Source: Gemmatimonadales bacterium
GTDB taxonomy: Bacteria; Gemmatimonadota; Gemmatimonadetes; Gemmatimonadales; GWC2-71-9
DNA: 36,410 nt
Reading direction: 5' to 3'
NCBI GenBank assembly: GCA_050733115.1
Contig: JBOHSC010000314.1
Span: 1-36,410, forward strand
Under the pieces are notes generated by a model. That model was not told where the DNA came from. It was given only the letters and a program-made list of their open reading frames with translations, and ran no database searches. Position numbers and translations under genes: made by a program. This document shows positions 15,698-35,327 of the stretch, piece by piece (position 1 is the stretch's first letter; every line of letters begins with the position of its first letter).

Positions 15698-15865
15698 GCA
15701 TCCTCCAACGACGATAACGGTCTCTTCCATACACGCGCGTAGCTCTCGCAATATAACCGCGGCCGGAAAGGCTACCGTCGCGGCGACTGGCGCGGGGCGG
15801 GGCTTCGGATGAATCTTCCGTGCGCGCCAACTCGCCACCCCTCACCTTCTCTACGAGCTCCCCGG

Positions 15866-17269
15866 ATGAAATCGCTCCGCGCGCGGCACGCCATCGCCGC
15901 TCTCTCCCTCCTCACTCTCGGGGCGCTACCGGTGCCGTGCCGGGCCCAGCAGTCGTCAATCGGCTCCGTTTACAGCGCGATCGCCGACAGCGTCTATCGT
16001 GCCGCCACCGGCGACAGCCTCGCCTACATCCGCCTCGGCCGCCTGGTGGATACCTTCGGCCACCGGCTCAGCGGCTCCCCGGCGCTGGAGGCCGCGATCG
16101 ACTGGATTCTAGCCGAAATGAGCAAGGACGGCCTGGAGAACGTTCGGGGCGAGCCGGTCATGGTGCCACGGTGGGTCCGGGGTCCCGAGTCGATCGAGAT
16201 GGTGCAGCCCCGGGCGGCACCGCTCCGCATGCTTGGGCTTGGCGGCAGCATCGCCACCCCCAAGACGGGCATCACGGCGCCGGTGCTGGTGGTATCCGGC
16301 TTCGATGAGCTCCAGCAGCACGCCGCCGAGGCAAAGGGGAAGATCGTTCTCTTCGACGCGCCGTTCACTGATTACGTCACCGTCAGGAAAATCCGCACCG
16401 ACGGTCCCTCGGCGGCCGCGAGAGTGGGCGCGCTGGCCTGTCTGATCCGGTCGGTAGCGTCGGCCTCGATCCGAAGCCCGCACACCGGCGCGCTCCGTTA
16501 CGACTCCACTGCGGCCAGGATTCCCGCCGCGGCGCTCAGCGTCGAAGATGCGATGATGCTTCATCGCTTCCAGAACCGCGGCGAGCGAGTGATCGTGACG
16601 CTGCGCATGAGCGCGCGGACGCTCCCTGATGCGCCCTCGCGCAACGTGATCGCCGAGGTAGTGGGCCGCGAAAAGCCCGACGAGGTCGTCGTGCTCGGCG
16701 GCCACATCGATTCGTGGGATGTGGGGCAGGGCGCGATGGACGACGGCGGCGGCTCGGTCGCCGCCTGGGAGGCGGTGCGCCTGATGCACCGGCTCGGCCT
16801 CCGGCCGCGGCGGACGGTGCGGGTGGTGCTGTGGACCAACGAGGAAAACGGCGGGCGCGGCGGACAGGCGTACCACGACGGGCACGCGTCGGAGATTGGC
16901 AAGCACGTCCTGGCAATGGAATCGGACAACGGGGTGTTCAATCCGAAGGGCTACACTTTCGTAGGCTCGGACGAGGCGGCGGCGGTAGTGAAGGAGGTCG
17001 CCGCGCTCCTCGACTCCGTCGGAATCTCGGGGGTGCAGCGCGTGCCCGATAGCCCGGCGGCCGACATCACGTCTCTGGTGCAGGACGGGGTGCCGGGAAT
17101 GGAGCTCGACGTCGACCAGACCCGGTATTTCTGGTATCACCACAGCGACGGCGACACTCTGGACAAGCTCGACCCGGCTGAGATGGCCCGTTGCATCGCG
17201 GCGATGGCGGTGATGGCCTACGTGGTCGCCGATCTGCCGGAGCCGCTGCACCGGAAGGCCGCTGGGTGA
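15866..17269 (+). CDS. M28-family zinc peptidase (carboxypeptidase Q-like), secreted
   Basis: The ATG at 15866 gives the signal peptide MKSLRARHAIAALSLLTLGALPVPCRAQ. Metal-ligand motifs GGHIDSWDVGQGAMDDGGG, WTNEENGGRG and YHHSDGDT are present. Confidence 0.9.
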   Translation: MKSLRARHAIAALSLLTLGALPVPCRAQQSSIGSVYSAIADSVYRAATGDSLAYIRLGRLVDTFGHRLSGSPALEAAIDWILAEMSKDGLENVRGEPVMVPRWVRGPESIEMVQPRAAPLRMLGLGGSIATPKTGITAPVLVVSGFDELQQHAAEAKGKIVLFDAPFTDYVTVRKIRTDGPSAAARVGALACLIRSVASASIRSPHTGALRYDSTAARIPAAALSVEDAMMLHRFQNRGERVIVTLRMSARTLPDAPSRNVIAEVVGREKPDEVVVLGGHIDSWDVGQGAMDDGGGSVAAWEAVRLMHRLGLRPRRTVRVVLWTNEENGGRGGQAYHDGHASEIGKHVLAMESDNGVFNPKGYTFVGSDEAAAVVKEVAALLDSVGISGVQRVPDSPAADITSLVQDGVPGMELDVDQTRYFWYHHSDGDTLDKLDPAEMARCIAAMAVMAYVVADLPEPLHRKAAG

Positions 17270-17346: not shown

Positions 17347-19698
17347 ATGCTCCTTCCTCTGCTGCTCCTCCACCTCGGCGGCACCGACCCGGCCATGGTC
17401 TACGACGGCCGTGGCGGCAACCTGGACGTTCATCCGCCGCGTCTCGATGCCAGGGTTACGGTAGACGGTACGCTCGACGAGCCCGAGTGGGCCCGGGCGG
17501 CGATGCTCCGGGGCTTTTCCCAGTACTCGCCGATGGATGGAATCCCGGCCGTCGACTCGACCGAGGTGCTCGTCTGGTACTCGTCCGACGCGATCTACTT
17601 CGGCATTCGGGCGTTCGAAGCGCACGGCGAGGTGCACGCCACGCTGGCCGACCGCGACAAGATCTTCGCCGACGATTTCGTGCAGATCCTTCTCGGCACC
17701 TTCGACGACGGCCGCCAGGCGACGGTGCTGGCGGTGAACCCGTTCGGCGTACAGTCGGACGGAGCGCTGGTGGAAACCGGCTCGACAACCGGCAATGGCT
17801 TCAACAGTGCCGTGGTGCGCCGCGAAGTGGCCGATCTGAGTCCGGACTACGTTTACGAATCGAAGGGACGTCTCACCGGATACGGATATGAGGTGGAGGT
17901 GCGGGTTCCCTTCAAGAGCCTCCGCTTCCAGCCGAGGCAGGAGCAGCGCTGGGGCATCAACATCACGCGCACGGTGCAGCACTCCGGACAGGAAGACTCG
18001 TGGGCGCCGGCCAAGCGCGCGAGCGCATCGTTCCTGGCCCAGTCGGGCCACCTGGTCGGGCTCACCGACCTGCAACGCGGGCTCGTGCTCGACCTGAATC
18101 CGTCGCTCACCTCGAAAACGACCGGCACGGCCGGCTCGGCGGGGTGGGACTACAGCGGCGGAGCGCCGGAGCTCGGCGGCAGCGTACGTTGGGGCATCAC
18201 CAACAACCTCAACCTGAACGGGACGGCCAATCCCGACTTTTCCCAGGTCGAGTCGGATGCGGGGCAATTCCAGTTCGACCCGCGGGACGAGATCTTCTTC
18301 TCCGAGAAGCGGCCCTTCTTCCTCGACGGAAGCGAACAGTTCACGACGCCGAATCAGCTCATCTACACCCGGCGCATCGTGCAGCCGGTGGCCGCGGTCA
18401 AGCTTACCGGCAAGGGCTTCGGCACCGACATCGGGTTTCTCTCCGCGCTCGACGACCGCCAGGTGTCGGCAACGGGCGAAGACCACCCGTTCTACAATCT
18501 GCTCCGGCTCCAGCGTGATGTCGGATCGAGCTCGCGCCTCGGCCTGACCTACACCGACCGGGTGGACGGGAACAACTCGAATCGCGTCGGCGGCCTCGAT
18601 GGTCGCTTTGTCAGAGGGGTGTACACGGCGCAGTTTCAGGTCGCCGGCAGCAGGACCACCCAGACGGGAGTCACCACCACCGCGCCCCTCCTGTTCGGCC
18701 GCGTCATCGCCAGCGGCCGCACCTTCGGGTTTCGCACCAGCTTCAACGGATCGGACGCCAGGTTCCGTGCGCGCAGCGGCTTCTTCCCCCGGCCCGGCCT
18801 CTCGCGCATCAACTTCCAGCCTCGGGTGTCGTTCTACGGCAAGTCCGGCAGCCTGATGGAGAACCTGACCGTCGACGTGAATCTCGACGGCCTGTACCGG
18901 TACGATCAGTTCGCCAGGAGCGCGGGGATGCAGGAGGAGAAGGCGCACCTGAACGCCAATCTCATCATGTACGGAGGGTGGCACGTGGGCGCCTCGGTGC
19001 TGAATGAACACTTCGGATACCCATCGGAGGTGTACACCGACTATCGTCTCGAGCTGCCGCGCACTGATGGCACAGGCGTGGACACGGTGCCATTCGTGGG
19101 ACGCCAGAAGATTCCCAACCGGGACTACGTCCTCAGTCTCGACACTCCGGATTTCTCGCAGTTCTCCGGCAGCTTGTTTCTGCTCTGGGGTCACGACGAG
19201 AACTTCTTCGAGTGGGCGTCGGGAGATATTCTCTGGATCACGCTCGGCCTCGACTGGCGGCCGACCGACAAACTGCGCCTCAGCGGCAACTATCAGATGC
19301 AGTCGGTGAGCCGGCGAACCGACGGCAGTCTCGTTAACGTCAATCACATCCCTCGGCTCAAGATCGAGTACCAGGCGTCGCGTCCGATCTTCGTGCGGCT
19401 CGTCGGCGAGTACACCAGCGAGCGGCAAAGCGCACTGCGCGACGACACCCGCACCAACGCGCCGATTCTCATCTTCGATCCGGACGTCGGCGACTTCGTT
19501 CGCACCACGCCGTTCAAGCATCGGTCGTTTCGTGGCGATCTGCTCTTCTCATACCAGCCGACTCCGGGCACGGTCCTCTTCGCCGGCTACGGCAGCACGC
19601 TGCGCGATCCGGTCGACCCCACCGATCCGCTCCGCGCCGGGCTCCGCCGGTCGGAGGACGGGTTCTTCTTCAAGATGAGCTACCTCTTCCGGATGTAG
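17347..19698 (+). CDS. CBM9-like + DUF5916-type outer-membrane-associated protein
   Basis: The N-terminal VDGTLDEPEWARA...FSQYSPMDG...DDFVQILLGTFDDGRQATVLAVNPFGVQSDG pattern is typical of CBM9/DUF5916 proteins. A long beta-rich C-terminal part ends in an aromatic-rich tail (FFFKMSYLFRM). An in-frame TGA at 17326-17328 prevents upstream extension. Confidence 0.75.
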   Translation: MLLPLLLLHLGGTDPAMVYDGRGGNLDVHPPRLDARVTVDGTLDEPEWARAAMLRGFSQYSPMDGIPAVDSTEVLVWYSSDAIYFGIRAFEAHGEVHATLADRDKIFADDFVQILLGTFDDGRQATVLAVNPFGVQSDGALVETGSTTGNGFNSAVVRREVADLSPDYVYESKGRLTGYGYEVEVRVPFKSLRFQPRQEQRWGINITRTVQHSGQEDSWAPAKRASASFLAQSGHLVGLTDLQRGLVLDLNPSLTSKTTGTAGSAGWDYSGGAPELGGSVRWGITNNLNLNGTANPDFSQVESDAGQFQFDPRDEIFFSEKRPFFLDGSEQFTTPNQLIYTRRIVQPVAAVKLTGKGFGTDIGFLSALDDRQVSATGEDHPFYNLLRLQRDVGSSSRLGLTYTDRVDGNNSNRVGGLDGRFVRGVYTAQFQVAGSRTTQTGVTTTAPLLFGRVIASGRTFGFRTSFNGSDARFRARSGFFPRPGLSRINFQPRVSFYGKSGSLMENLTVDVNLDGLYRYDQFARSAGMQEEKAHLNANLIMYGGWHVGASVLNEHFGYPSEVYTDYRLELPRTDGTGVDTVPFVGRQKIPNRDYVLSLDTPDFSQFSGSLFLLWGHDENFFEWASGDILWITLGLDWRPTDKLRLSGNYQMQSVSRRTDGSLVNVNHIPRLKIEYQASRPIFVRLVGEYTSERQSALRDDTRTNAPILIFDPDVGDFVRTTPFKHRSFRGDLLFSYQPTPGTVLFAGYGSTLRDPVDPTDPLRAGLRRSEDGFFFKMSYLFRM

Positions 19699-22709: not shown

Positions 22710-22943
22710 GTCGTGGGATCGCCACAACGATCTCCCGATTTCAGCGTCTGCAGGACCCTGCATCGACCATCCTTACCCCTCCCTCAAGCAAGCATCCTTC
22801 CGCGTGTTGCGGCTGCTCCACCACACATCCAGCATCTTCTGCCACCAGCACCTGCGGCTGGCGTACCTCTTGCCCCTTACAGCAGTTGCACAACGGAGAC
22901 AATGGCGAGACTGCAATCCTCTGCAATGGGGCGACAGCGACCG

Positions 22944-24161
22944 ATGCGCGTCATGCTGTTGAACTACGAGTACCCTCCGTATGGCGGCGGCGCCGGTGTA
23001 GCCACCGAGGCGCTGGCGCGCACGCTCGCGTCCCGCGGCGTCACGGTGGACGTCGTGACCGCCGGTGACAAGACGGAGTGCCAGTCCGAGCTGCTCTGGG
23101 ACGGCGACGCGGCCGAAGAGGGGCTACTCAACGTTCACCGGGTGCGGTGCCGCCGCACGTCGGTGCACCAGGCGAGCATGTTCGACGCGGCCAGCTATCT
23201 CTTCGCCGCGCTGCCGGTGATCCGCGAGCTGCTCGAGGCGGAAGAGTACGATACGGTCCACGTCTTCTTCTCGCTTCCGACCGGCGCGCTCATCCCGTTG
23301 CTCAATCTCGGCAAGACGCCGGTGATCGTCTCCCTCAGGGGCTCCGACGTTCCGGGATACGACTCGCACAATCGCAACCTCGAGCGGGCGCACGCACTGT
23401 TGCGTCCCTTTACACGCTGGATCTGGCGCCGCGCCGACCGTGTAGTGCCGGTGTGCGAGAGCCTTGGCCAGATGGCGGCGCGCACCCTGCCGAGCCTGGA
23501 CTACACGGTGATTCCCAACGGTGTGGACCTCGCGCGCTTTCACCCTCCGGCGTCGCGGCGGAACCGGCGCTGCGGACCAGTCCGCTGCATTGCCGTGGCG
23601 CGACTGGTGGAGCGGAAGGGGCTCACCGACCTGATACGCGCCATCGGCCTGCTGGAGCGAGGAAGCTACGAGCTCGAGATCGTCGGCACCGGGCCGGACG
23701 AGCATGTGCTTCGCGAGCTGGTGGCTGGCCTCCGGCTCGACGGCTTCGTGAAGTTCAGCGGTTCGCTCGACCGTGCCACCGTCGCCCGCCGGTACCGTGA
23801 CGCGGATCTCTTCACTCTCGCCTCCGTCGAGGAGGCGTTCGGCAATGTGTTCGCCGAAGCGCTGGCCTGCGGCCTTCCCGTCGTGGGCAGTGCGGTGGGC
23901 GGCATCCCCGACCTCGTCCAGCATGGCCGCAACGGCCTGCTGGTCCCGCCTCGTGATCCGTTCGCGCTTGCCACCGCCATCCGGCACCTCGGAGAGAATC
24001 CCGCGCTTCGCGCCGAGATCGGCCGCCGCAATCGGGCCCAGGCGGAGGCGACTCTTTCCTGGGATCGGATCACTACCCGGTACCTGTCGCTCTACAACGG
24101 CCTCCGCCGCCGCACTCCAGCACGTTCCCGCCTCGCCGAGCTGCCCTCGAGCTCCTGGTGA
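22944..24161 (+). CDS. GT4-family (GT-B) glycosyltransferase
   Basis: MRVMLLNYEYPPYGGGAGVATEALARTL is a typical GT4 N terminus. The E-x7-E region is EEAFGNVFAEALACGLPVVGSAVGGIPDLV. Alternative in-frame ATGs lie at 22902 (GGAG 3 nt upstream) and 22926. The ORF-track start at 22680 is rejected. Confidence 0.9.
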   Translation: MRVMLLNYEYPPYGGGAGVATEALARTLASRGVTVDVVTAGDKTECQSELLWDGDAAEEGLLNVHRVRCRRTSVHQASMFDAASYLFAALPVIRELLEAEEYDTVHVFFSLPTGALIPLLNLGKTPVIVSLRGSDVPGYDSHNRNLERAHALLRPFTRWIWRRADRVVPVCESLGQMAARTLPSLDYTVIPNGVDLARFHPPASRRNRRCGPVRCIAVARLVERKGLTDLIRAIGLLERGSYELEIVGTGPDEHVLRELVAGLRLDGFVKFSGSLDRATVARRYRDADLFTLASVEEAFGNVFAEALACGLPVVGSAVGGIPDLVQHGRNGLLVPPRDPFALATAIRHLGENPALRAEIGRRNRAQAEATLSWDRITTRYLSLYNGLRRRTPARSRLAELPSSSW

Positions 24162-25459
24162 GCGCGACGCTCGGTTTCTGGCTCGCGGCGGATGGGTTTC
24201 AGCTGCTCCGGGCTCCCCGACTGGCGCCCGACGCGCTCCAGTCTCTCTCGCGCCGCCGGCTCGCCCGCCTGCTCGCGGCAGCCGCGAGGACGGAGTTCCA
24301 TCGAGAGCGGCTCGAAGCGATCGGCCTCGACTCGAGGAGTTCGCTGCTCCACCTCGATCCCGAGGGCGTGCTTGCCTCGCTCGCTCCGGTCGGCAAGGCG
24401 GAGCTTCGGGCGGCGGGAACAGGAATGCTGCGTGGCGGGCGGATTCGGCCGGAGTGGATGTCTTCGAGCTCTTCGGGCTCGACCGGCGAGCCGTTTCGCG
24501 TCTACTACGACACGCGCGCCTGGGCCACGCTCAAGCATCTCGTGAAGCTCCGCGCCAGGGCGGCGTGTGGGGTCCGGCCGACCGATCGCGTGGCGCTCCT
24601 CGACGCGATCCCGCCGAGGCAGCGGCAGGGATTCGTTCGCGGCAGCCGCGTTGCCCGGATCAGCGTGCTGCAGCCGGGCGCGGCGATGGCCGAACAACTC
24701 GCCGCCTTCCGGCCCGACGCCGTCTACGGTCTTCCCTCGGCGCTGCTCGAAGCGGCGGCGGCGCTGCGCGCGCAGGGCCGGCAGCTCGTCATCGGGCGGG
24801 TGTTCACCAGCGGGGAGCTTCTGCGGCCGGCCGTTCGCGAGGCAATCGCGGACGCGTTTCAGGCGCGGGTCTTCGACATCTACGGAAGCTCGGAGACGAA
24901 GGAGATCGCGTGGGAGTGCGCCGAGGGCGGCATGCACGTGAATGCCGACGTGATCCGCCTCGAGGTACTCGACGATGAGGGCCGGCCCCTCCCCGACGGC
25001 GTCGAGGGAAATCTGGTGGCCACCTCGCTCGTCAATCACGCGATGCCTCTGCTGCGCTACCGGCTCGGCGATCGGGGCAGCATGCGTTCACACGCCTGTC
25101 CCTGCGGGCGGGCCTTTCCGCTGCTCGGCGTCGTGACCGGTCGCGCGGTCGATGTCCTTGTGCTCTCCGACGGGCGGCGGGTATCACCCTACGCTCTCAC
25201 CTGCGCCCTCGAGCGGGAAGAGTCACTGCTGCGTTACCAGGTGAGCCAGCTCGATCCGGCACGCCTGCGGGTGCGAGCCATTGTGGAGCCCGGGGCGCAG
25301 CGCAGCGCCGTTACCGATCGGGTGCGGGCGCTGATGCGGGCGGAAGTCGCTCCTTTCCTCGAAACCGACGTCGAGTTCGTGGACCATCTTCCCACCGGAC
25401 CGCGAGCCAAGTTCAGTGTCGTCCAGCCGCTGGCGGTGCCGGCGCAATCCCTCGGTTGA
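24158..25459 (+). CDS. Adenylate-forming enzyme, phenylacetate-CoA ligase (PaaK) / coenzyme F390 synthetase / CapK-like family, copy 1
   Basis: The GTG start overlaps the GT4 stop (GTGA at 24158-24161). The phosphate-binding motif SSSSGSTGEPF is at 24461-24493. The ~430-residue length and the N-terminal RRLARLLAAAARTEFHRERL pattern are typical of the family. Confidence 0.85.
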   Translation: MSATLGFWLAADGFQLLRAPRLAPDALQSLSRRRLARLLAAAARTEFHRERLEAIGLDSRSSLLHLDPEGVLASLAPVGKAELRAAGTGMLRGGRIRPEWMSSSSSGSTGEPFRVYYDTRAWATLKHLVKLRARAACGVRPTDRVALLDAIPPRQRQGFVRGSRVARISVLQPGAAMAEQLAAFRPDAVYGLPSALLEAAAALRAQGRQLVIGRVFTSGELLRPAVREAIADAFQARVFDIYGSSETKEIAWECAEGGMHVNADVIRLEVLDDEGRPLPDGVEGNLVATSLVNHAMPLLRYRLGDRGSMRSHACPCGRAFPLLGVVTGRAVDVLVLSDGRRVSPYALTCALEREESLLRYQVSQLDPARLRVRAIVEPGAQRSAVTDRVRALMRAEVAPFLETDVEFVDHLPTGPRAKFSVVQPLAVPAQSLG

Positions 25460-25473
25460 GGCGATAGCTCACG

Positions 25474-26442
25474 ATGATCCAGATACCGTCCGGCCGCGCC
25501 TTCCCGCGTGATCACTCCGGCGGGCGAGGGCGCGCGCGTCCGTTGCCCCATCCGCTCTCGCCGTACGAGGATCTGGTCGTGAACTTCTGCCCGACCGGAA
25601 TGATCCCGACAAAGGCGATGACGCCCCATGTGCCGGTGTCTCCGTCGGAGGTGATCGACCAGTCGTGCTCGGCGCTCGAGCGGGGCGTGGCCATCGTCCA
25701 TCTGCACGCGCGCGAAGCCGACGGCTCCCCGACGTATCGCGCCGAGATCTACGAGGAGATGATCCTCGGCATCCGCGGACACTTTCCCGACGCGATCACC
25801 TGCGTGAGTTGCAGCGGCCGGAACTTCCCCGAGCTCGAGCGCCGGAGCGAGGTACTGGAGCTGACCGGCGCCGCGCGCCCCGACCTGGCCAGTCTCACGC
25901 TTACCACGCTCGACTTTCCGACGGGAACGAGCCAGAACGCCCCCGACATGGTCATCGCGCTCGCGGAGAAGATGGTGGCAAAGGGGATCAAGCCGGAGCT
26001 CGAGTGCTTCGACTACGGGATGATCAATGCCGCGAACATGCTGATCGGGAAAGGGATGCTCGGAGAGCCGCCGTACTATTTCAACCTGCTGCTCGGCTCG
26101 CGCTACTCCGTGCCGGCGACGGCGAAGCACCTGTCCGGGATGATCGACGACCTGCCCGACGATTCGGTCTGGTCGGCGGCGGGGATCGGACTCTTCCAGT
26201 TGCCGATGAACACACTCGCCATCGCGATGGGCGGCCACACCCGGGTGGGTCTCGAGGACAACATCTTCCACGGATTCGATCGGGGCGAGCTGGCCACCAA
26301 TCAGGGCCTGGTCGAGCGCGTCGCGGACTTGAGTGAAACCTTCGGGAGGAAGCTGGCGACCCCGGCGCGCGCCCGTGCGCTGCTCGGCGTGGCGCCCTCG
26401 GCCGCGGCGATCGACCGCGTCCCCACCGCGGGGGCGCGATGA
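25474..26442 (+). CDS. BKACE-family enzyme (3-keto-5-aminohexanoate cleavage enzyme-like, DUF849)
   Basis: TIM-barrel start VVNFCPTGMIPTK. Zn-ligand H-x-H in AIVHLHARE (25699-25707). GGHTRVGLEDNIF contains the conserved Glu (26254-26256). The ~35-residue N-terminal extension is uncertain. Confidence 0.85.
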   Translation: MIQIPSGRAFPRDHSGGRGRARPLPHPLSPYEDLVVNFCPTGMIPTKAMTPHVPVSPSEVIDQSCSALERGVAIVHLHAREADGSPTYRAEIYEEMILGIRGHFPDAITCVSCSGRNFPELERRSEVLELTGAARPDLASLTLTTLDFPTGTSQNAPDMVIALAEKMVAKGIKPELECFDYGMINAANMLIGKGMLGEPPYYFNLLLGSRYSVPATAKHLSGMIDDLPDDSVWSAAGIGLFQLPMNTLAIAMGGHTRVGLEDNIFHGFDRGELATNQGLVERVADLSETFGRKLATPARARALLGVAPSAAAIDRVPTAGAR

Positions 26443-27782
26443 TCATCCGTGGGCCGGACCTCCTCGGAACGGTCAGCGCCATTCAGCGGCACATACGCGC
26501 CGATCGCGCCCAGCTCCAGACGTTTCAGGACGCCAAACTGCGGCGACTGCTCGTGCATGCCTACGAGCACGTGCCCTACTACCGGAAGCTGTTCGACCGG
26601 CAACGGCTCCATCCGCGCCACATCCGCGGCACGATCGATCTCGAGCTCATTCCGATCACGACCAAACAGGATCTCCGTGACCTTCCCCCTTCCGAGATCG
26701 TGACGAAGGGGGTCGATCCCTGCTCCCTCGTGTCGGTGCGCACCAATGGCTCCACGGGAGAACCGTTCGTCGTCCGCCGGACGGGGGTCGAGCAGGGCTT
26801 TCACACGATGTTCCGCCAGCGCGCGTACGAAGCGTTCGGCCTTGGGTTGCGCGGCCGTATCGCCGCGATAAGCTATCCGCGCCCCCGCCACCCGAGGGAC
26901 ACCAAGGTGGTGGGCCGCTGGCTGAGCGCCATGGGGGTGCACCCGACGCTCCGGATCGACGGCCTCCAGGATCCCGAGGCGATCGCCGAGCAGCTCGAGG
27001 CGTTCCAGCCCGATCTCATCACCGCGCTACCGGGCATGCTGCACCGCGTGGCCGATCACCTCGTCGACTCGGGAAAGGGCCGTGTCCGCCCGCGAATCGT
27101 GGTAGTGGGAGGTGAGGTGTTGACGCCGCTGGTCCGGCGCCGCCTGATCGAGGCCTTCGGCGTGGCGCCGCTCCAGACCTACGCCAGCCACGAGTTCCAG
27201 CTGCTGGGGTGGGAGTGCCGCACCCTCGGCGGCATCCACACCTGCGACGACGGGGCGATCGTCGAGGTGTTGAACGAGGGACGTCGGGCGCTGCCCGGCG
27301 AGGAGGGAGAGGTGGTTGCCACCAACCTTCACGCCTATGCGATGCCGTTCATTCGCTACCGCCTCGCCGATCTGGTCACCCGTGGCGCCGAGACGTGCGC
27401 ATGCGGGCAACCCTTCTCCGTGATCGGCGCGATCCGGGGACGGATGATCGACTACTTCCCGCTGCCGAACGGCAGGGTCGTGCATCCGTACCAGATTCTC
27501 CAGAGCCTCCAGCCGGGCGACGATACCTGGATCCGTCAGTGTCAGCTACTGCAGGATCGCCCGGACCGGGTGATCATGAGCATCGTGGCCGCCGGTGCAC
27601 CTGCGCCGGAGCTCGAGCGCCGCATCGTTGGCTCGGTGCAGCCCCTGCTGGGACCGGGAGTCGAATTCCAGATCCGGATCGTGGACGAGATCCCGCTCGA
27701 AGCCGGCGGCAAGTTCCGTCACGCGCGCTCGCTGATGGCCTCGGACTACGAGGCGGCGCCCGCGATCGCGCTGAATGGTTAG
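26439..27782 (+). CDS. Adenylate-forming enzyme, PaaK / F390 synthetase / CapK-like family, copy 2
   Basis: ATGA overlap with the BKACE stop (26439-26442). Motif TNGSTGEPF lies at 26742-26768, starting at codon 102 as in copy 1. The N-terminal pattern is KLRRLLVHAYEHVPYYRKLF. Confidence 0.85.
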   Translation: MIIRGPDLLGTVSAIQRHIRADRAQLQTFQDAKLRRLLVHAYEHVPYYRKLFDRQRLHPRHIRGTIDLELIPITTKQDLRDLPPSEIVTKGVDPCSLVSVRTNGSTGEPFVVRRTGVEQGFHTMFRQRAYEAFGLGLRGRIAAISYPRPRHPRDTKVVGRWLSAMGVHPTLRIDGLQDPEAIAEQLEAFQPDLITALPGMLHRVADHLVDSGKGRVRPRIVVVGGEVLTPLVRRRLIEAFGVAPLQTYASHEFQLLGWECRTLGGIHTCDDGAIVEVLNEGRRALPGEEGEVVATNLHAYAMPFIRYRLADLVTRGAETCACGQPFSVIGAIRGRMIDYFPLPNGRVVHPYQILQSLQPGDDTWIRQCQLLQDRPDRVIMSIVAAGAPAPELERRIVGSVQPLLGPGVEFQIRIVDEIPLEAGGKFRHARSLMASDYEAAPAIALNG

Positions 27783-29088
27783 CCTCCTCGAGCGGCTCGA
27801 AGGGGGCACGGCTCCCTGGCTCTTCGTCCACAGTGTCGAGCGCGCTTCCGAGCGCGCCCTCGTGCTGGCGCGTCCTCAGGACATCGTCTGCGTCAGCGAC
27901 GAGGTCGAGCCGGCCTATCTCTCCTATCTCGCCGAGCTGGGGCTGGGCCCGGCCCCGGACCGGGTCGTGCCGATGTCGCGCTTCGGCGACCGGTCGCCGG
28001 GGCGAGCGCTCTGGGCCCGATTGGCGGAAAACACCGAAGCCCTGCGTGCGGTCGGGTCGCTCGTGCGCGAGGGTGGCCCCTCCCGGCTCCATCCATTCAT
28101 CGCCTCGCGCGGCTCTTTCGCTCTGGCCGCGGCACTCGAGATCGCCGCCGACACCGAGGTTCGCGTGGCCGGCGGAGACCCCGCGATCGTAGAATACGCC
28201 GACCAGAAGCACAACATTCGCGAACGCGCCATCGCCCTCGGCATTCCGGTGGCCGACGGCGAGGTGGTCGAGCTTGCGGTGGCGGGCGGGCGACGGAAGC
28301 GCGACTATGACGCACTGCGCCATGCCGTGGAGCGGAGGCTGGCCCAGACGGGGCGCGTGCTGGTACGGGGATCGCACGGCACCGGCGGGTCGGCGACGCA
28401 CATCGTGGGCACCGGCGGGACCGACGTCCACGGACTGGTGCGGAACCTCTCCGATCATGTCGAGAATCGGGTCTACCTGGTCGAGACGATGGTCGCGGCA
28501 ACGGTGTCTCCCAACGTGCAGCTCCACATCTCACCGGCCGGCGGGCCGATCACCTGCGTCGGCGTGACCGACCAGCGTTGGGAGCGCCGGCTGGTGAATG
28601 GAGGAAATCTCTTTCCATCGGCGTCCCACCTGACGGCCGCGATGGTGGAGTGGTCGTACCGGATGGCGGGGTGGCTGCAGGAGGCGGCATACTCCGGGCT
28701 GCTGGGACTCGACTTCGTCGAGTACGCCGATCCGGGCACCGGGGAACTCCGCGCCTTCCTCGCGGAGGTGAATCCCCGGGTGGCCGGCGACACTTATCCA
28801 TTGGCGCTCTTCGAGCGGCTCAACGCCGCCCAGCGGCGAGCCGGGCGTCCGGAGAGCGGCGCCTTCGTATCGGGCACCATCGAAACCCGGCCGCGCCGAT
28901 TCGCAGAATTCCACCGTGCCGCCGACCATCTTTTCTATTCACCCGCTACCGGGTGCGGAGTCGTGCCGCATCACGTGGGGTCGCTCGGCCGCGGAAAGTG
29001 CGGCGTAGTAGTCTTCGGGCCGACGCGAGACGCCGTACTGCGCTCATATGGGGAGCTGCAGAGCTGGTGCAGGCGGGAGGGACAATGA
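27775..29088 (+). CDS. ATP-grasp superfamily carboxylate-amine ligase with an N-terminal pre-ATP-grasp-like region
   Basis: It overlaps the previous gene by 8 nt (ATGGTTAG). ATP-grasp landmarks are DQKHNIRERAIALGIPVADGE, RVLVRGSHGTGGSATHIV, VYLVETMV and GLLGLDFVEY...FLAEVNPRVAG. Confidence 0.7.
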   Translation: MVSLLERLEGGTAPWLFVHSVERASERALVLARPQDIVCVSDEVEPAYLSYLAELGLGPAPDRVVPMSRFGDRSPGRALWARLAENTEALRAVGSLVREGGPSRLHPFIASRGSFALAAALEIAADTEVRVAGGDPAIVEYADQKHNIRERAIALGIPVADGEVVELAVAGGRRKRDYDALRHAVERRLAQTGRVLVRGSHGTGGSATHIVGTGGTDVHGLVRNLSDHVENRVYLVETMVAATVSPNVQLHISPAGGPITCVGVTDQRWERRLVNGGNLFPSASHLTAAMVEWSYRMAGWLQEAAYSGLLGLDFVEYADPGTGELRAFLAEVNPRVAGDTYPLALFERLNAAQRRAGRPESGAFVSGTIETRPRRFAEFHRAADHLFYSPATGCGVVPHHVGSLGRGKCGVVVFGPTRDAVLRSYGELQSWCRREGQ

Positions 29089-30104
29089 CTTCCGCGGTCA
29101 TGCCGCTCCCGGCACGGCGATCGCTGCTCGCTGCCGTCGAGGAGCGCTTTCTCGTGCGGAGCTACGCGTCGCCGAGAGCGGGGGCGTGGGTCGCGGTGCA
29201 CGACGCGCTGGCGTTCCCGTTCCAGATGCGTGGAGATATGCGTCGTTCGACGGTCCGCACCGACGAGGGAACACTGCGAGTGGTAGAAATCGGACGCGGC
29301 AAGCACACGGGGCCGTTCTGTGCCCGGCTCCTCGGGTCGCGAGCGCACGGTGCGGGCGACGGCGCGCGGCCGCTTTGGAGCCCGGCCGCGCTGGCCGACG
29401 TCGACGCCGATCTCGTCCTGGCGGAGATTCATCGCTGGATGGCACCCCGCTTCCGGCGCGCCGGGTGGCTGGTCGTGCCCGACTCGATAAGGTGGCATGG
29501 CGATCTCACGCGCTGCCCGCCCTCGCGCGCCACGCCGAGCCTCAAGGCCGATCTGAAAAAGGTGAGCCGGTATGGGTACACCCTGGAGTCCGCCGGCACC
29601 TCACAGGACTGGGCGGAGTTCTACGGCAGCATGGTGGTGCCACAGGCGCGCGTTCGTTTCGGGGAAGCAGCGTGGATTCCGAGTGAACGGCTGCGGAGGG
29701 AGCTGGCGGCGCGTGGCACACTCCACTTCATCCTTCGCGACGGAGCCCCGGTGGCGGGTATCTGCTCGGTGCGCACCGGCTCGACACTCTGGCTTCCGGT
29801 GATGGGGCTCCGGCAGAGCGATGCGAACCTGCTCAAGGAGGGTGTCTACTCCGCCGCCTTCTCGCTCCTGTTCGACTGGGCAGCCAGGCAGGGATGCACG
29901 CAGGTGGACGCCGGCCGCACGTCGGCGTTCACACTCGACGGCGTACATCGGTTCAAACGAAAATGGGGGCTCGAGCCCGTGGCCGATCCGCTGAGCCACC
30001 TGATTGCCGTACGCGCCGGCTCTACGGCGCTGCGCGCGTTCGCGCACCAGCCCGTCCTCGTCGACCGCGGGAGTGGGCTGGCCGCATTTCCGGAGGCCGA
30101 GTGA
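29085..30104 (+). CDS. GNAT-fold acyl/aminoacyl transferase, FemAB/CelD-like (Acetyltransf_6-type)
   Basis: ATGA overlap at 29085-29088. The C-terminal half (HFILRDGAPVAGICSV...LLKEGVYSAAFSLLFDWAARQGCTQVDAGRT...GVHRFKRKWGLEP) follows the FemAB/CelD-like pattern, including the ..FK.KWG.. signature. Confidence 0.65.
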   Translation: MTSAVMPLPARRSLLAAVEERFLVRSYASPRAGAWVAVHDALAFPFQMRGDMRRSTVRTDEGTLRVVEIGRGKHTGPFCARLLGSRAHGAGDGARPLWSPAALADVDADLVLAEIHRWMAPRFRRAGWLVVPDSIRWHGDLTRCPPSRATPSLKADLKKVSRYGYTLESAGTSQDWAEFYGSMVVPQARVRFGEAAWIPSERLRRELAARGTLHFILRDGAPVAGICSVRTGSTLWLPVMGLRQSDANLLKEGVYSAAFSLLFDWAARQGCTQVDAGRTSAFTLDGVHRFKRKWGLEPVADPLSHLIAVRAGSTALRAFAHQPVLVDRGSGLAAFPEAE

Positions 30105-30784
30105 GCGTCCGCAGCCGACTCCTGCGTTTTGCCGGCCACTGGCGCGGCTTTCCTGGCGAGGCACGACGTGCCTATCGGGTGGGCGGCATGAGCGAGCTAC
30201 GGCAGCTCGTTGCCGACCGGTCGGTGCATCTCCTCTTCCGCCGGGACCGCATGGTGGTGGTGGCGCAGGCACTCGACTCGGTGCGCGACGCCGCCACGCC
30301 TGAAGGGGTGACGATCACCAGCGGCACCCGAGAGGACATCGGCCTCCTCACTGAGCTGGCGAGCGCCCGCGACATCCAGCTCTTTCGCGGACGGCACGAC
30401 GCGGGCCGCACCTGTCTCCTTGCATGGCGTAACGGGCGGCCGATCGGATATACGTGGCTCAGTGAGCGGATGGGGCCGGACGTGACCGTATGCACGCTCC
30501 CACTGCCCCCCAACGCTGCCTACCTCTACGATCTCTTCGTCCTTCCCGCGGAGCGGAGCTCCGGCGTCGGCTCGGCGCTGGTGAGCGCCCGGCTCCGGCT
30601 GGCCCGCGATCGTGGATTCACCGAGGGGTGGCGGATGATCTCGGTCGGGAATCATGCGTCGTTCAGGACGGTCGAGAAGACCCGTGGCCCGGGGACGAGA
30701 GTCGTGGGCGAGATGCGGTATCTGAAGGTGCTCGACAGGATCTACCCCCGATTCACGCCATGCAGCACGACCGGGGCCCAGTGA
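30101..30784 (+). CDS. GNAT-family N-acetyltransferase
   Basis: GTG start in a GTGA overlap (30101-30104); an alternative ATG is at 30189. The acetyl-CoA binding motif A is YDLFVLPAERSSGVGSALVSARLRLARDRG (about 30533-30620). Confidence 0.75.
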   Translation: MSVRSRLLRFAGHWRGFPGEARRAYRVGGMSELRQLVADRSVHLLFRRDRMVVVAQALDSVRDAATPEGVTITSGTREDIGLLTELASARDIQLFRGRHDAGRTCLLAWRNGRPIGYTWLSERMGPDVTVCTLPLPPNAAYLYDLFVLPAERSSGVGSALVSARLRLARDRGFTEGWRMISVGNHASFRTVEKTRGPGTRVVGEMRYLKVLDRIYPRFTPCSTTGAQ

Positions 30785-31914
30785 CCGCGGGCGTGCTCGG
30801 TGCGGCCGACCGCCTGACCGGCGAGGAGTGGAACGCGCTCGCCCGGCGCGGCTTCTCCCTTCACCGGTGGCACGCGGCGGCAGAGGCGAGCGGGTGGCGA
30901 CCCCGCCACGTCGTGGTGCGCGACGGCCAATCGGTGCTGGCAATCGTGCCCGCATACCTCCTCGACGGCGGCGCCGCGCTCGACATTCATGATCGCTGGC
31001 TCGGACCGCTCGGCCCCGCAATGGCGGCAGCCGGCCTCCGTTTTCGACCGACGATCTCCGTGGGCGCGCCGTGCTCCACCACCAGCTCGTGGCTTGGCGA
31101 TCTCGAGGCGCTCCCCGAGACGGTGATCGAACAGGTCTTCGCGGCGCTGGAGGCTCAGGCGAGGGAGGACGGGGCACGCGCCGTGGTATGGCCGTTCGTG
31201 GATGAGCGGCACCAGCACCTTCGTGAGGTGGCACGCCGCGGGGGATATCTTGACTACTATGCGGGCTCGACCGCGCGGGTTCCGGTCGCATGGCCCTCGT
31301 TCGACGATTACCTGGCGAGCCGCTCGAAGAGTCTCCGCCGCACCGTCCGCGCCGAACTCAAGTGGCTGGACGAGCGTGCTATCCGCACTGCCATGACTCC
31401 CGACTTCCGGGCGCAGGCTCCCGCTATGGCGGCGCTGTACGCCTCCACCAGTGAAGATCACCGCGGCCGCGCGGCGGCCGTGCCCTCGATTCTTTTCACG
31501 CACCTCGCCGAGCAGCCCACCCCGGGGCTCTGGGGGCAGCTCACCTATCACGACGACCGACTCGTGGGTTCCAGCATCTCGGTCGCCGCCAGCGGCGTGA
31601 TGGAGGGAACGTTCGCGGCGTTCGCGCCGGGATTCCTGGCCGGGCCGGTATATCACAACGACCTGGTGTACGAGCCGCTGCGCGTGGCATGCGCCGAGGG
31701 GATGACGGCTCTCGATCTGGGGCCGACGGCGCTCTATCCCAAGGTGCTGCGAGGCGGCCGCTTGGTGCGCCGGCGCACCCTCGTCCGGGGAACCTCACTC
31801 CTCGTACAAGGGGCGCTGCGCATGCTCGGACCAGTGGTTGCGCGCCGGACCGAGTGGAAGGAGCGGCGCGCTCTCGAGGCGCTCGGCACACTGGAGACGC
31901 TGACCGACGCATGA
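30781..31914 (+). CDS. FemAB-like / DUF482-type GNAT-fold protein ('peptidoglycan biosynthesis/recognition' family)
   Basis: GTG at 30781 forms a GTGA overlap with the upstream stop; an in-frame ATG at 30760 is the alternative. The patterns EEWNALARRGFSLHRWHAAAEASGWRPRHVVV..., FDDYLASRSKSLRRTVRAELKWL and LDLGPTALYPKVLRGG resemble that family. The assignment is from memory. Confidence 0.6.
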   Translation: MTAGVLGAADRLTGEEWNALARRGFSLHRWHAAAEASGWRPRHVVVRDGQSVLAIVPAYLLDGGAALDIHDRWLGPLGPAMAAAGLRFRPTISVGAPCSTTSSWLGDLEALPETVIEQVFAALEAQAREDGARAVVWPFVDERHQHLREVARRGGYLDYYAGSTARVPVAWPSFDDYLASRSKSLRRTVRAELKWLDERAIRTAMTPDFRAQAPAMAALYASTSEDHRGRAAAVPSILFTHLAEQPTPGLWGQLTYHDDRLVGSSISVAASGVMEGTFAAFAPGFLAGPVYHNDLVYEPLRVACAEGMTALDLGPTALYPKVLRGGRLVRRRTLVRGTSLLVQGALRMLGPVVARRTEWKERRALEALGTLETLTDA

Positions 31915-33353
31915 CCAGCATCGATCTGTCGATCCCGGCGCCACGCCGGGCCAGCCTGCTCCAGCGGATTGCCGCCTATTCGGCGAGCCGCGGTGTCACC
32001 GAGGGGTTGCTCGGCCTGCGCGGCATTCTGCTCGCCACGGTGCTGGGCCCGGCCGGATTCGGTGCGTGGGCGCTCCTCCGGCTCTCCATGCGATACTCGA
32101 TGTTCGGCGCGCTTGGTGTCTTTCGCGGGCTCGAGCTGGAGTCGCTCGCCGCCCGCCGGCGCGACGAGCCGGGTGAGGGCGCTCCCGCCGGGGCGGCGCT
32201 GGGGTTCATTCTCGCGGAATCGGGGACGCTGGCGGGCATAGCGCTCGTCGCGTCGTTCGTAGTGCCCGATCCGTCGCATGCCATGGTCCTCAGAGGCTTC
32301 GCGGCGGCGGTGGTGTTTGAGCAGGCGTACACCTATGCCCTCGTCTGGACCCGGGTGCGGATGACGCTCCGCCGTTACGCTTCGCTCGAAATGGTCAACG
32401 CCGCGCTGCAACTCGTCTGCGCGGTCTCGCTGGCGGCGGTGTGGGGGCTTCCCGGGGCGTTCGGCGGGATGGCGCTGGCCAGCGCCCTGGCGCTGCTGCT
32501 CGCCGCGAGCTGGGTCGAGTTCCGGCCCGCGATTCGCATCGCGCCGCTGAGGCGGTTGCTCGGCGTGGGCATCCCGCTCACCGTCTCGATGCTCCTCGCC
32601 ACCTCCCTCTACACCGCCGACCGCTGGATCGTGGCCGCGTTCGGCGGTGCGACGCTGCTCGGCTACTACGCGCTTGCTGCCTCGGTGGCCGACGTCACCG
32701 GATCGTTCGCCTGGGTGGTGCGAACCGTCGTATTCCCCGATGTGTACGGCCACGCGCAGTCGTCGGGCGCGGTTGCGGCGCTCAATCGGCATTTCGACCG
32801 GGCCGTGCTCCCCTTTGCGCGACTCTATCCTCCGCTCCTCGGCGCGCTGGCTTGCCTCCTCGGTCCCGTGGTGGCGCTGGCAGTGCCGCAGTATCTCCCC
32901 GCCATCGCCCCTGCGAAGATCTTCCTCGTGAGTGGTGCCGCGGCAGGTCTCGTGAGCCTGGCCGCCGTCGGTGCGGTCGCGGCAGGCCGGCATCGCAGTC
33001 TGCCCTTTCTCTCGGCCGGCGGCCTGGTCGCGAGCGTCACCCTTTCACTCCTCGCGATCCGACTGGGCCGGGGTCTCGAGGCAGTGGCGGGGGCGGCGTT
33101 CACCGGCCAGGTCCTCTACGCGGCGGGGATTCTGTGGCTTACCTGCCGAGAGGGTCAGCGCACCGACACCGCCGCCTTCCTTCGGAGTGCGCTCCTGCCG
33201 CTCGGATGGTGCATGACGTCGGTGCTGCTGGTGGGCCGGCTCTTTCCCGGCAACGACCTCGCATCGGCGGCGCCTGCCTTTCTCGTCTACCTGGTGTTGA
33301 TCCTTCCGCTTGCGCCGGTAATCAGACGCGAGTGGGCGGCGGTCCGGAGGTAG
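31911..33353 (+). CDS. MOP-superfamily oligosaccharide flippase (Wzx-like polysaccharide biosynthesis protein)
   Basis: ATGA overlap at 31911-31914. It is a ~480-residue protein of a dozen or so hydrophobic helices. The N-terminal GLLGLRGILLATVLGPAGFGAWALL pattern is typical of Wzx/PST flippases. Confidence 0.8.
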   Translation: MTSIDLSIPAPRRASLLQRIAAYSASRGVTEGLLGLRGILLATVLGPAGFGAWALLRLSMRYSMFGALGVFRGLELESLAARRRDEPGEGAPAGAALGFILAESGTLAGIALVASFVVPDPSHAMVLRGFAAAVVFEQAYTYALVWTRVRMTLRRYASLEMVNAALQLVCAVSLAAVWGLPGAFGGMALASALALLLAASWVEFRPAIRIAPLRRLLGVGIPLTVSMLLATSLYTADRWIVAAFGGATLLGYYALAASVADVTGSFAWVVRTVVFPDVYGHAQSSGAVAALNRHFDRAVLPFARLYPPLLGALACLLGPVVALAVPQYLPAIAPAKIFLVSGAAAGLVSLAAVGAVAAGRHRSLPFLSAGGLVASVTLSLLAIRLGRGLEAVAGAAFTGQVLYAAGILWLTCREGQRTDTAAFLRSALLPLGWCMTSVLLVGRLFPGNDLASAAPAFLVYLVLILPLAPVIRREWAAVRR

Positions 33354-33356
33354 CCG

Positions 33357-34205
33357 ATGGCGCGCGCCCGGGAGAGACTCTCGGTGGTGGTACTCACTTC
33401 GATTCCGCTCGGAATCGAAGTCACCGCGGCGCTGAGAGCGTTGCCCGAGGTGGGTCAGCTGACCCTTTTCTCCGCCCCGGCGATACCGCACCAGACGACG
33501 GCCTCGTTGATCCGGACCACTTGGCGCCACGAGGGAATGCGAGGCCTTCTCGATGCCGCGCTCCGGAGGGCACGGAAGGCGGCACGTCTCCAGGAGAACC
33601 GCAGTCCAGCGGCGCTGGCCGCACGGCGTTGTCCCAACGTCGCCCACTTCCCGATGGCCCAGTTTCATTCCGATGCGTGCCGCGCCCGAATCTCCGGGCT
33701 CGCTCCCGATCTCGGCGTGGTGGTGGGCACCCACGTCCTGAAGGGCGATCTCTTCACCATCCCACGCCTCGGCTGCATTAATCTCCACCTCGGCGCCGCG
33801 CCGGAGTTTCGCGGCTCGTCACCGGGGTTCTACGAGCTGCTGGAAGGGGTGCCCGAGGCCGGCGTCACCATCCATCGCGTGACCGATACACTGGACGGTG
33901 GCGACATCCTCCTTCAGGAGCGCTTCCCCCTCGAGACCGCCCCCGATGGCGACCCCGTGGACTATCTGCGCCGATACCTGGCCGAGGTGCTCTGCCCGAA
34001 CGGGGTGCGCATGATGGCGGCGGCGGTTGCGGCGATGGCCCATGGAACGCAGACCGAACGGGTCCAGGATGCCGCCGCCGCCCGCACCTACCGGCGAGCC
34101 ACATGCGCCCTCAAGCGCGAGTTGAGGCAGCGGGTCGCCGAACGGAGGAAGGGCACGCTGCAGGCGCCGGTCGGGAGGTTGACATACGGCTCGACCGAGC
34201 CGTAA
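33357..34205 (+). CDS. Formyltransferase-family protein (Fmt/PurN/ArnA-N-like)
   Basis: GGAGG at 33346-33350, 6 nt before the ATG. Catalytic Asn/His are in CINLHLGAAPEFRG (Asn 33780-33782, His 33786-33788). Asp is in VTIHRVTDTLDGGDILLQ. Confidence 0.85.
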   Translation: MARARERLSVVVLTSIPLGIEVTAALRALPEVGQLTLFSAPAIPHQTTASLIRTTWRHEGMRGLLDAALRRARKAARLQENRSPAALAARRCPNVAHFPMAQFHSDACRARISGLAPDLGVVVGTHVLKGDLFTIPRLGCINLHLGAAPEFRGSSPGFYELLEGVPEAGVTIHRVTDTLDGGDILLQERFPLETAPDGDPVDYLRRYLAEVLCPNGVRMMAAAVAAMAHGTQTERVQDAAAARTYRRATCALKRELRQRVAERRKGTLQAPVGRLTYGSTEP

Positions 34206-34433
34206 GTTCAGTTCAGGCGACCCAGTGCGAGAAATGCCGATGCCGATATCTCACCCAGTGATGTCCCTTTGCCCTTGTAGCTGTCCTGTCCGCATGCGGA
34301 CCGGAGGGTAGGCGCAGCCGCACATTGACGTACCATGTTTTCCAGTCGATGGCCGCGTCCTCCTACCGGAGCTCGCGGCCGATTTCATCTCCAGTACTGA
34401 TGTTCCATTGCAAGCATGCCTGAGGAGGCTTCC

Positions 34434-35327
34434 ATGGGAGCAGCACAAGCGGTCAGGCCGGTGGTTCCGATCGACCAGCGGGGGTATGTACATCCCGAGG
34501 TCCTGGTCTCGACCGACTGGGCAGCCGCCCATCTCAACGACCCGAAGGTCCGCCTGGTCGAATCGAATGAAGACATCCTGCTCTACGATACGGGGCACAT
34601 CCCGGGAGCGGTCAAGCTCGACTGGACCACCGACCTGAACGACTCTGTCATCCGCGACTACATCGACCGCGACCGGTTGCAGAAGTTGCTGCGGTCGAAG
34701 GGGATCAACGACGACACGACGATTGTGCTTTACGGAGACAAGAACAACTGGTGGGCTACCTACGCCCTCTGGGTGCTTCAGCTCTTCGGAGTGGAGAACG
34801 TGAAAATCCTCGATGGCGGGCGCCTGCGCTGGGCGGAGGAAGGACGGAAGCTCACCACCGACACGCCGGCCTACGCCGCGGGCAACATCACTCTCGGGGA
34901 GCGTGACGACACGAAGATCCGCGCCTTCCGCGAGGAGGTGCTGGACCATTTGAAAAAGAAGGGACAGCTGGTGGACGTGCGGAGCCCCGAGGAGTTCAGC
35001 GGCCAGCGCACGCACATGCCCGAGTACCCGCAGGAGGGAACGCTGCGCGGCGGTCACATTCCGGGCGCCAAGAGCATTCCCTGGGCCAAGGCGGTGGACC
35101 CCGACACCCATACTTTCCGGTCCGCGAGCGACCTGAGGAAGCTGTACGAGCAGGACAACAGCCTGAACAAGAAGGAAGAGACGATCGCCTACTGCCGGAT
35201 CGGGGAGCGCTCGTCGCATACGTGGTTCGCGCTCACCTACCTGCTCGGCTTCGACAACGTGCGGAACTACGACGGGTCGTGGACCGAATGGGGCAATGGA
35301 GTGCGCCTGCCGGTGGAAAAGTCGTAA
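34434..35327 (+). CDS. Thiosulfate/3-mercaptopyruvate sulfurtransferase (tandem rhodanese domains)
   Basis: The ATG at 34434 is preceded by GAGGAGG (34422-34428). The active-site loop is [13 protein letters not shown]. The overall pattern ([20 protein letters not shown]..., [11 protein letters not shown]) is like actinobacterial CysA/SseA-type sulfurtransferases. Confidence 0.9.

Follow-up and report, generated by a model that had tools for sequence, protein, structure and literature searches.

What is a BKACE (DUF849) enzyme doing among genes for the assembly of a surface glycan? The question is raised by a 36,410-nucleotide stretch of DNA from a Gemmatimonadales bacterium (contig JBOHSC010000314.1 of GenBank assembly GCA_050733115.1; hereafter the window), in which a gene for such an enzyme is the third of ten tightly packed genes on one strand. 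Canonical BKACE enzymes act on a Zn-chelated beta-keto acid and acetyl-coenzyme A (acetyl-CoA), and release acetoacetate together with an acyl-CoA that has two carbons fewer than the keto acid (PMC11961710; bioRxiv 10.64898/2026.01.15.699783). The answer that we favor with moderate confidence, on comparative-genomic grounds, is that the window enzyme would supply a non-standard acyl-CoA to N-acyltransferases that decorate an envelope glycoconjugate. Within this answer, we infer the direction of the reaction, the hand-over of the product to the acyltransferases and the nature of the acceptor. Judged from its sequence relationships, the gene belongs to an acyltransferase-partnered BKACE clade that has no earlier description. 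BKACE/DUF849 is a model family for function discovery, and the branch in question, which the earlier surveys do not describe, is a large one, with hundreds of protein clusters in Gemmatimonadota, Bacteroidota, Campylobacterota and Chlorobiaceae and with acyltransferases and sugar-tailoring enzymes as partners. If the proposal is right, it would explain the source of some unusual N-acyl groups on bacterial surface sugars, offer glycobiologists and enzymologists a compact enzyme pair that is a single fusion protein in some species, and correct the automatic name "3-keto-5-aminohexanoate cleavage protein" for these genes.

Is the protein a true member of the family? Its reading frame translates into 322 amino acids without an internal stop, and residues 34-305 match positions 2-273 of the 274-position Pfam model PF05853 (BKACE/DUF849) at 261.8 bits, against a cut-off of 24.8 (E 9.3e-78). 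The best match in the PDB is the uncharacterised DUF849 structure 3NO5 (E 4e-47), and the lysine-fermentation enzyme Kce (2Y7D) is matched at E 2e-44; both alignments are nearly gap-free, and such gap-poor alignments to solved barrels point to a TIM-barrel fold. In pairwise alignments, His76, His78 and Glu261 fall on the Zn ligands of Kce (H46, H48 and E230), Glu177 on the catalytic base (E143 of Kce, E171 of PdKce), and Arg257 and Asp262 on Kce R226 and D231. Not one of these residues varies among the 55-68 relatives that were aligned, and E171 of PdKce has been shown by mutagenesis to be the catalytic base (PMC11961710). An earlier reading of the window (the original prediction) had described the H-x-H motif and the Glu of GLEDN (26254-26256) as intact, while allowing that they might prove misaligned; the codons are exactly where they were said to be, and the alignment to Kce and the relatives disposes of that worry. 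Because all catalytic residues are kept, the protein can be taken as a genuine BKACE, and apparently an active one. It is the only BKACE gene detected in the source genome, which is about 80% complete, and no phage homologue was found.

What might the enzyme act upon? The statements that follow about the substrate pocket come from sequence alignment. With Kce the protein has in common the Pfam family, a full-length alignment, the HxH plus Glu site, the catalytic Glu and the Arg and Asp of the R-x-G-x-E-D motif, but Kce Glu14 is replaced by Ile44, Ala86 by Arg116, Asn108 by Thr142 and Tyr145 by Phe179. Glu14 of Kce binds the 5-amino group of the substrate; the corresponding position is isoleucine or valine in all close members of the clade, and the surrounding motif, TGMIPTK, is kept in 67 clade members. 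NCBIfam equivalog scores, which served as a proxy for placement among the activity families, miss the Kce model (NF052387; 240.9 bits against a cut-off of 382). With Ile44 in place of Glu14 and the Kce cut-off missed, a Kce-type amino substrate is therefore unlikely, which argues against the beta-aminoacyl-CoA product offered as an example in the original prediction. The model for 3-oxoadipate:acetyl-CoA acetyltransferase (NF053568) is missed as well (196.2 bits against 350), and the protein is not an equivalog of the 3,5-dioxohexanoate enzyme. Both 3NO5 and NF053568 resemble it in the G-R loop that holds the Arg116 equivalent, in an E-x-F-D motif and in a hydrophobic residue at the Glu14 position, but the identity of about 40% and the score well under the cut-off set it apart from them. 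The invariant Arg116, together with Ser209-Arg210-Tyr211 and His255, which are specific to the subclade, would fit a substrate with an anionic or polar side chain. The replacement of Tyr145 by phenylalanine was considered as a marker of non-canonical chemistry and ruled out, since phenylalanine is nearly universal at this position in the 150 nearest representatives, including those with the Kce-like GAE motif.

The operon runs from 22902 to 34205 in the order GT4 glycosyltransferase, LigA, BKACE, LigB, pre-ATP-grasp protein, Fem1, GNAT, Fem2, Wzx flippase and formyltransferase, and the start of LigB overlaps the BKACE stop codon as ATGA at 26439-26442. LigA and LigB are PaaK-like acyl-CoA ligases, and the placement of BKACE between two adenylating enzymes, close to a glycosyltransferase and a flippase, is as originally described. 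Of the components of an amino-sugar N-acylation module of O-antigen or capsule loci, the operon has predicted acyl-CoA-dependent N-acyltransferases (a GNAT and two Acetyltransf_6/FemAB-like proteins), a glycosyltransferase (GT4) and a flippase (Wzx). This glycan-type setting differs from lysine-fermentation, carnitine or aromatic-degradation operons.

Could this neighborhood be an accident of one genome, as the original prediction recognized it might be? A scan over one genome per species yielded 76 loci. An ortholog at 69-91% identity is present in 41 non-redundant loci, all from Gemmatimonadales or from Gemmatimonadota metagenome-assembled genomes. Neighbors were counted from tblastn maps, with loci of sufficient flank as denominators. 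Upstream of BKACE, GT4 is present in 32/32 loci and LigA in 30/32; downstream, a GNAT-fold gene is present in 22/23, LigB in 20/23 (in several copies at some loci), the ATP-grasp gene in 17/23, Wzx in 15/23 and the formyltransferase in 12/23. In some relatives a further, carbamoyl-phosphate-synthase-like ATP-grasp gene (409-415 amino acids) follows LigA, as at 8772-10001 of locus L002, and a version of 409 amino acids is found between LigA and BKACE. The neighborhood is thus conserved and is not accidental. Median identity is 82% for BKACE and 48-66% for every other operon protein, and BKACE therefore appears as the constant core within a mosaic of tailoring genes. Of 61 genomes from the source genus, 22 carry BKACE and LigA side by side, and in 32 neither gene was detected; the sole case of BKACE alone lies at a contig edge. 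Orthologs of at least 66% identity are almost confined to the source genus in a sample of 401 genomes of the phylum, and the operon has the patchy distribution of an accessory island.

A different kind of evidence comes from more distant relatives. The 35 further loci, with BKACE proteins at 42-57% identity, are mostly from Bacteroidota (Algoriphagus, Aequorivita, Gillisia, Flavobacterium and Chitinophagaceae), plus Balneolales and a few others, and they share no gene with the window besides BKACE itself. In 26 of the 35, BKACE directly adjoins a gene for a hexapeptide-repeat acyltransferase of 215-240 amino acids, usually on its 3' side and with overlapping ends in the pairs whose coordinates were examined; in two Algoriphagus loci the acyltransferase is one gene farther away. 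The acyltransferase is assigned to the NeuD/PglB/VioB type, with a score of 146 bits (cut-off 161). A sugar transaminase of the WecE family is found in 10/35 of the loci, one of them annotated as the dTDP-4-amino-4,6-dideoxygalactose transaminase WecE (563 bits against a cut-off of 375), and GT2 and WecF-like glycosyltransferases, ATP-grasp ligases and a Wzx or ABC exporter occur as well. By analogy, this Bacteroidota layout is the classical one predicted to make and attach an N-acylated 4-amino-4,6-dideoxyhexose. In a second Gemmatimonadales type (53-55% identity), a GNAT gene ends on the BKACE start codon. Remoter homologues have other company: in another Gemmatimonadota genome, a paralogue with 37% identity has genes for an acyl-CoA dehydrogenase and for peptidases as neighbors, and plasmid homologues at about 36-38% identity lie beside pcaG, a catabolic context. 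The glycan-linked, biosynthetic context is therefore specific to the clade of the window gene and is not family-wide. Two other plasmid homologues, at 41-43% identity, sit between ribA and a class I S-adenosylmethionine (SAM) methyltransferase gene, one on Salmonella enterica plasmid pRSE21 (locus L091, 6992-7861) and one on a Streptomyces camelliae plasmid (L092, 6989-7843). Their clusters also hold riboflavin synthase and gamma-glutamyltransferase genes, with rosB in Streptomyces, and look like a flavin-analogue (roseoflavin-type) biosynthetic context, a point of some interest because the product of the DUF849 enzyme BsfD, discussed below, targets lumazine synthase.

In some organisms the association of BKACE with an acyltransferase goes as far as fusion. 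A HMMER search of 1.84 billion representatives of 50%-identity clusters gave 236 clusters at E <=1e-30, and fusions were read in the best 150 of these 236. Among those 150 there are eight GNAT-BKACE and two BKACE-GNAT proteins, one fusion of BKACE to a DegT sugar aminotransferase (P0147), one to an aldo/keto reductase (P0166), and two to a class I aminotransferase resembling aspartate aminotransferase (P0217 and P0224); aspartate aminotransferase would yield oxaloacetate, which is itself a beta-keto acid. The GNAT-BKACE architecture, of about 450 amino acids, is not an annotation artefact: at least 120 clusters have it, from Sulfurovum, Hydrogenimonas, Chlorobiaceae and others, and the contigs that encode it reach 1.9 Mb. 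The NCBI name of these fusions (P0124 and its relatives P0271-P0389) is just "GNAT family N-acetyltransferase". In a FastTree phylogeny of 148 sequences, the window protein and its orthologs form a clade with support of 100, with GNAT-fused forms among its nearest branches. The Bacteroidota sequences whose genes adjoin an acyltransferase gene group in a single clade (support 93), and the Kce-like G-A-E sequences fall in the opposite half of the tree. Sequences in the half that contains the window protein have in common the loop S/T-x-S-G-R (112-116) and the Ser140/Thr142 pair, and its closer members have T-G-M-I/V-P-T-K in place of the T-G-A-E of Kce. Transferases with two unrelated folds, GNAT and left-handed beta-helix, thus accompany BKACE in separate branches of the tree, and this recurrence of an acyltransferase association in several branches is the strongest argument for a functional link. 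The suggestion in the original prediction that BKACE has a biosynthetic use, feeding an acyl donor to acyltransferases, gains in this way from synteny in about 40 Gemmatimonadales species, from co-occurrence within the genus, from pairing with an N-acyltransferase in another phylum and from fusions to GNAT and DegT domains.

How might the pathway work? The simplest explanation for a fused or adjacent partner that consumes an acyl-CoA is that BKACE produces this donor. The Zn site formed by His76, His78 and Glu261 would bind a beta-keto acid, which would undergo a Claisen/retro-Claisen exchange with acetyl-CoA, with Glu177 as the base. The products would be acetoacetate and an acyl-CoA that is shorter by two carbons and is not available from central metabolism. 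With this acyl-CoA as donor, the GNAT-fold transferases whose genes lie downstream (29085-31914) would acylate an amine on a sugar-containing envelope molecule. That molecule would presumably be built by GT4, tailored further by the PaaK-like ligases, the ATP-grasp ligase and the formyltransferase, and flipped outward by Wzx.

The general logic has precedents. Acyl-donor genes are found inside glycan loci in the anthrose operon antABCD of Bacillus anthracis and in the modified-viosamine island of Pseudomonas syringae pv. tabaci, where a dedicated enzyme makes a non-standard acyl thioester beside a sugar aminotransferase, an N-acyltransferase and a glycosyltransferase. This layout is seen again in the Bacteroidota relatives of the window BKACE, with the difference that the acyl group of anthrose and viosamine comes from an enoyl-CoA hydratase or from fatty-acid-synthase-like enzymes that use acyl carrier protein (ACP), not from a BKACE. 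The window operon departs further from these systems, in that it has no sugar aminotransferase and its transferases are GNAT/FemAB-like instead of left-handed beta-helix proteins. As for the family itself, ObcA, a structural relative of BKACE, makes oxalate, and both it and BsfD are biosynthetic, so catabolism can no longer be called the only known role, as it was in the original prediction. BsfD is a DUF849 enzyme that builds the phosphonate antibiotic flavophos in Burkholderia (PDB 9ZSC, 9ZSH, 9ZSN and 9ZSV; bioRxiv 10.64898/2026.01.15.699783). The 2014 activity map of BKACE and the 2026 NetSyn context survey covered 725 mostly proteobacterial sequences and listed catabolic contexts; no glycan or acyltransferase context is listed for these 725 classical sequences. 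Full-text literature searches found no description of a glycan-linked or acyltransferase-fused BKACE.

Several observations weigh against donor synthesis by BKACE. Profile searches found no DegT/WecE-type sugar aminotransferase among the ten operon genes. None of the three GNAT-BKACE fusion contexts examined (L082, L083 and L084) is a glycan locus; the neighbors of the fusions have no homology to window genes, and two of the three contexts adjoin ATP-dependent amide ligases, one GCS2-like and one RimK/Ddl-like. Support in the tree near the window clade is 80-92. In BsfD, Arg226 stacks on the adenine of CoA (bioRxiv 10.64898/2026.01.15.699783). That residue is also an arginine in Kce and 3NO5 and is variable in the Bacteroidota relatives, but it is Leu240 (26191-26193) in the window protein and throughout the Gemmatimonadales operon clade. 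Moreover, two genomes of the genus keep GT4, LigA, the ATP-grasp gene (L085, 6215-7444; L086, 6588-7835), LigB and onward without BKACE, and locus L022 (4638-9152) is a minimal island of GT4, BKACE, formyltransferase and rhodanese genes, with no ligases, Fem/GNAT transferases or flippase. BKACE is therefore a dispensable tailoring module of the island, for which a GNAT in cis is not obligatory. Finally, the two CoA ligases that flank BKACE could equally mean that it consumes an acyl-CoA.

This last point leads to an alternative in which BKACE works as a condensing enzyme that adds two carbons independently of ACP. LigA would make an acyl-CoA, BKACE would move the acyl group onto acetoacetate to give a longer beta-keto acid and acetyl-CoA, and LigB would re-activate that acid for amide or ester formation on the glycoconjugate. 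Since the BKACE exchange starts and ends with a thioester and a beta-keto acid, it should be near isoenergetic and reversible, and the flanking PaaK-type ligases, with the near constancy of LigA, suit the scheme. So do the ATP-dependent ligases (ATP-grasp and GCS2) that recur near members of the clade and could attach a free acid, and the aldo/keto reductase of fusion P0166, which would suit reduction of a beta-keto product. However, the Bacteroidota relatives have no CoA ligase beside BKACE, just a CoA-dependent acyltransferase, the GNAT fusions are best explained by hand-over of an acyl-CoA product, and LigB is missing at loci where BKACE is followed directly by Fem/GNAT genes (L032-L034, L037 and L039). 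We consider the condensing scheme unlikely. Even less probable, in our judgment, is chemistry like that of BsfD, which stops after transfer of the acetyl group of acetyl-CoA and decarboxylation (bioRxiv 10.64898/2026.01.15.699783). Here the beta-keto acid would be C-acetylated by acetyl-CoA and then decarboxylated with no retro-Claisen step, and a 1,3-diketone would be built into the decoration. BsfD does set a precedent for DUF849 in biosynthesis, Phe179 corresponds to its Phe166, and an Arg-Tyr pair (210-211) stands where BsfD has Lys-Tyr. Nevertheless, a phenylalanine shared with nearly all of the 150 nearest representatives is not diagnostic, and the insertion of BsfD after strand beta3, about 20 residues in the region 112-133, with its phosphonate-binding Arg91, is absent from the window protein in the alignment. 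A diketone product would not account for the recurrent acyl-CoA-using transferase partners. BsfD itself is remoter than Kce (E 1.5e-33) and belongs to a phosphonate cluster for which no acyltransferase partner is mentioned.

Perhaps the gene is simply a catabolic or housekeeping BKACE, either the Kce of lysine fermentation or a 3-oxoadipate enzyme, that is in the operon by chance or recycles a by-product. Its top NCBIfam matches are indeed the Kce and 3-oxoadipate models, and two fragments of a KamA-family (lysine 2,3-aminomutase-like) radical SAM protein lie elsewhere in the genome, at the ends of the small contigs C397 and C49; the fragments may be halves of one gene and are unlinked to the BKACE operon. 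Yet both equivalog cut-offs are missed (241 against 382 and 196 against 350), Ile44 replaces the amine-binding Glu of Kce, and there are no kamDE, kdd, kal or pca genes nearby; within the window, no kamA and no phosphonate genes were found either. The conserved and co-inherited operon position in about 40 species argues strongly against a catabolic role, which we regard as very improbable. Synthesis of an acyl donor for the N-acyltransferases remains the interpretation that we prefer.

A broader version of that interpretation would extend it to the whole clade with the S-x-S-G-R loop, the Ser140/Thr142 pair and, in its closest members, TGMIPTK. In this speculative proposal, which we think has a rather small chance of being correct, the clade would be a two-part device not recognized before: BKACE would turn a common free beta-keto acid into an acyl-CoA that is otherwise lacking, and the product would pass directly to the fused or adjacent N-acyltransferase. 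In Gemmatimonadales, the trio of ligase, BKACE and ligase could also serve as an ACP-free two-carbon extender. Our guesses at such conversions are oxaloacetate to oxalyl-CoA and malonate semialdehyde to formyl-CoA. If the proposal held, surface sugars and small amines in many phyla would carry N-acyl decorations of a new class.

The features of the window are collected in the table below.

Table. Genes of the BKACE operon, its flanking genes and the key sites of the BKACE protein, in coordinates of the window
Feature	Position	Strand	Basis
DUF5916 protein, upstream neighbor; separate transcription unit likely	17347..19698	+	Pfam PF19313
GT4 glycosyltransferase, operon gene 1; start uncertain (ATG 22902 or TTG 22680)	22902..24161	+	Pfam Glycos_transf_1/Glyco_transf_4
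LigA, PaaK-like adenylate-forming acyl-CoA ligase	24158..25459	+	NCBIfam DVU_1553-family and PaaK models, under cut-off
BKACE/DUF849 enzyme, 322 amino acids	25474..26442	+	PF05853; PDB 3NO5, 2Y7D
Ile44, position of Kce Glu14, within motif TGMIPTK	25603..25605	+	Pairwise alignment
His76-Leu77-His78, two predicted Zn ligands	25699..25707	+	Alignment to Kce
Loop S112-C-S-G-R116; S112 is Kce S82; Arg116 clade-invariant, Ala in Kce	25807..25821	+	Alignments
Glu177 (predicted catalytic base) and Phe179	26002..26010	+	Alignment to Kce, PdKce, BsfD
Arg257...Glu261-Asp262 (R-V-G-L-E-D); Glu261 predicted third Zn ligand	26242..26259	+	Alignment
LigB, second PaaK-like acyl-CoA ligase	26439..27782	+	NCBIfam matches
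Pre-ATP-grasp domain protein, read as ATP-grasp-type amide ligase	27775..29088	+	Pfam PF18604
Fem1, GNAT-fold Acetyltransf_6 (FemAB/CelD-like) transferase	29085..30104	+	Pfam PF13480
Classical GNAT N-acyltransferase	30101..30784	+	Pfam PF00583
Fem2, FemAB_like/Acetyltransf_6 transferase	30781..31914	+	Pfam PF04339, PF13480
Wzx-type polysaccharide flippase	31911..33353	+	Pfam Polysacc_synt, Polysacc_synt_3
Formyltransferase (Fmt/ArnA N-domain-like), final operon gene	33357..34205	+	Pfam PF00551; NCBIfam fmt/ArnA, under cut-off
Rhodanese-domain protein, downstream neighbor	34416..35327	+	Pfam PF00581

The top NCBIfam matches of GT4 are EpsE/BshA-like and all under cut-off, and those of LigA in the PDB are AjiA1, PaaK and 2-hydroxyisobutyryl-CoA synthetase, at E 3e-21 or weaker; the pre-ATP-grasp protein has no sequence match in the PDB. 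A scan of the window against Rfam gave no family match, and a scan for promoters and terminators gave nothing above chance. Besides the DUF5916 gene, a homolog of which is upstream of BKACE in 27 of the 41 loci with an ortholog, a Ser/Thr kinase gene also lies upstream of the operon. The rhodanese gene recurs downstream in the related loci L001, L002 and L022. Farther upstream on the + strand, positions 12157-15270 encode a protein of 1037 amino acids with Big_1 Ig-like domains, Kelch repeats and a galactose-oxidase-type C-terminal domain, which precedes an M28 peptidase gene (15809-17269) and the DUF5916 gene.

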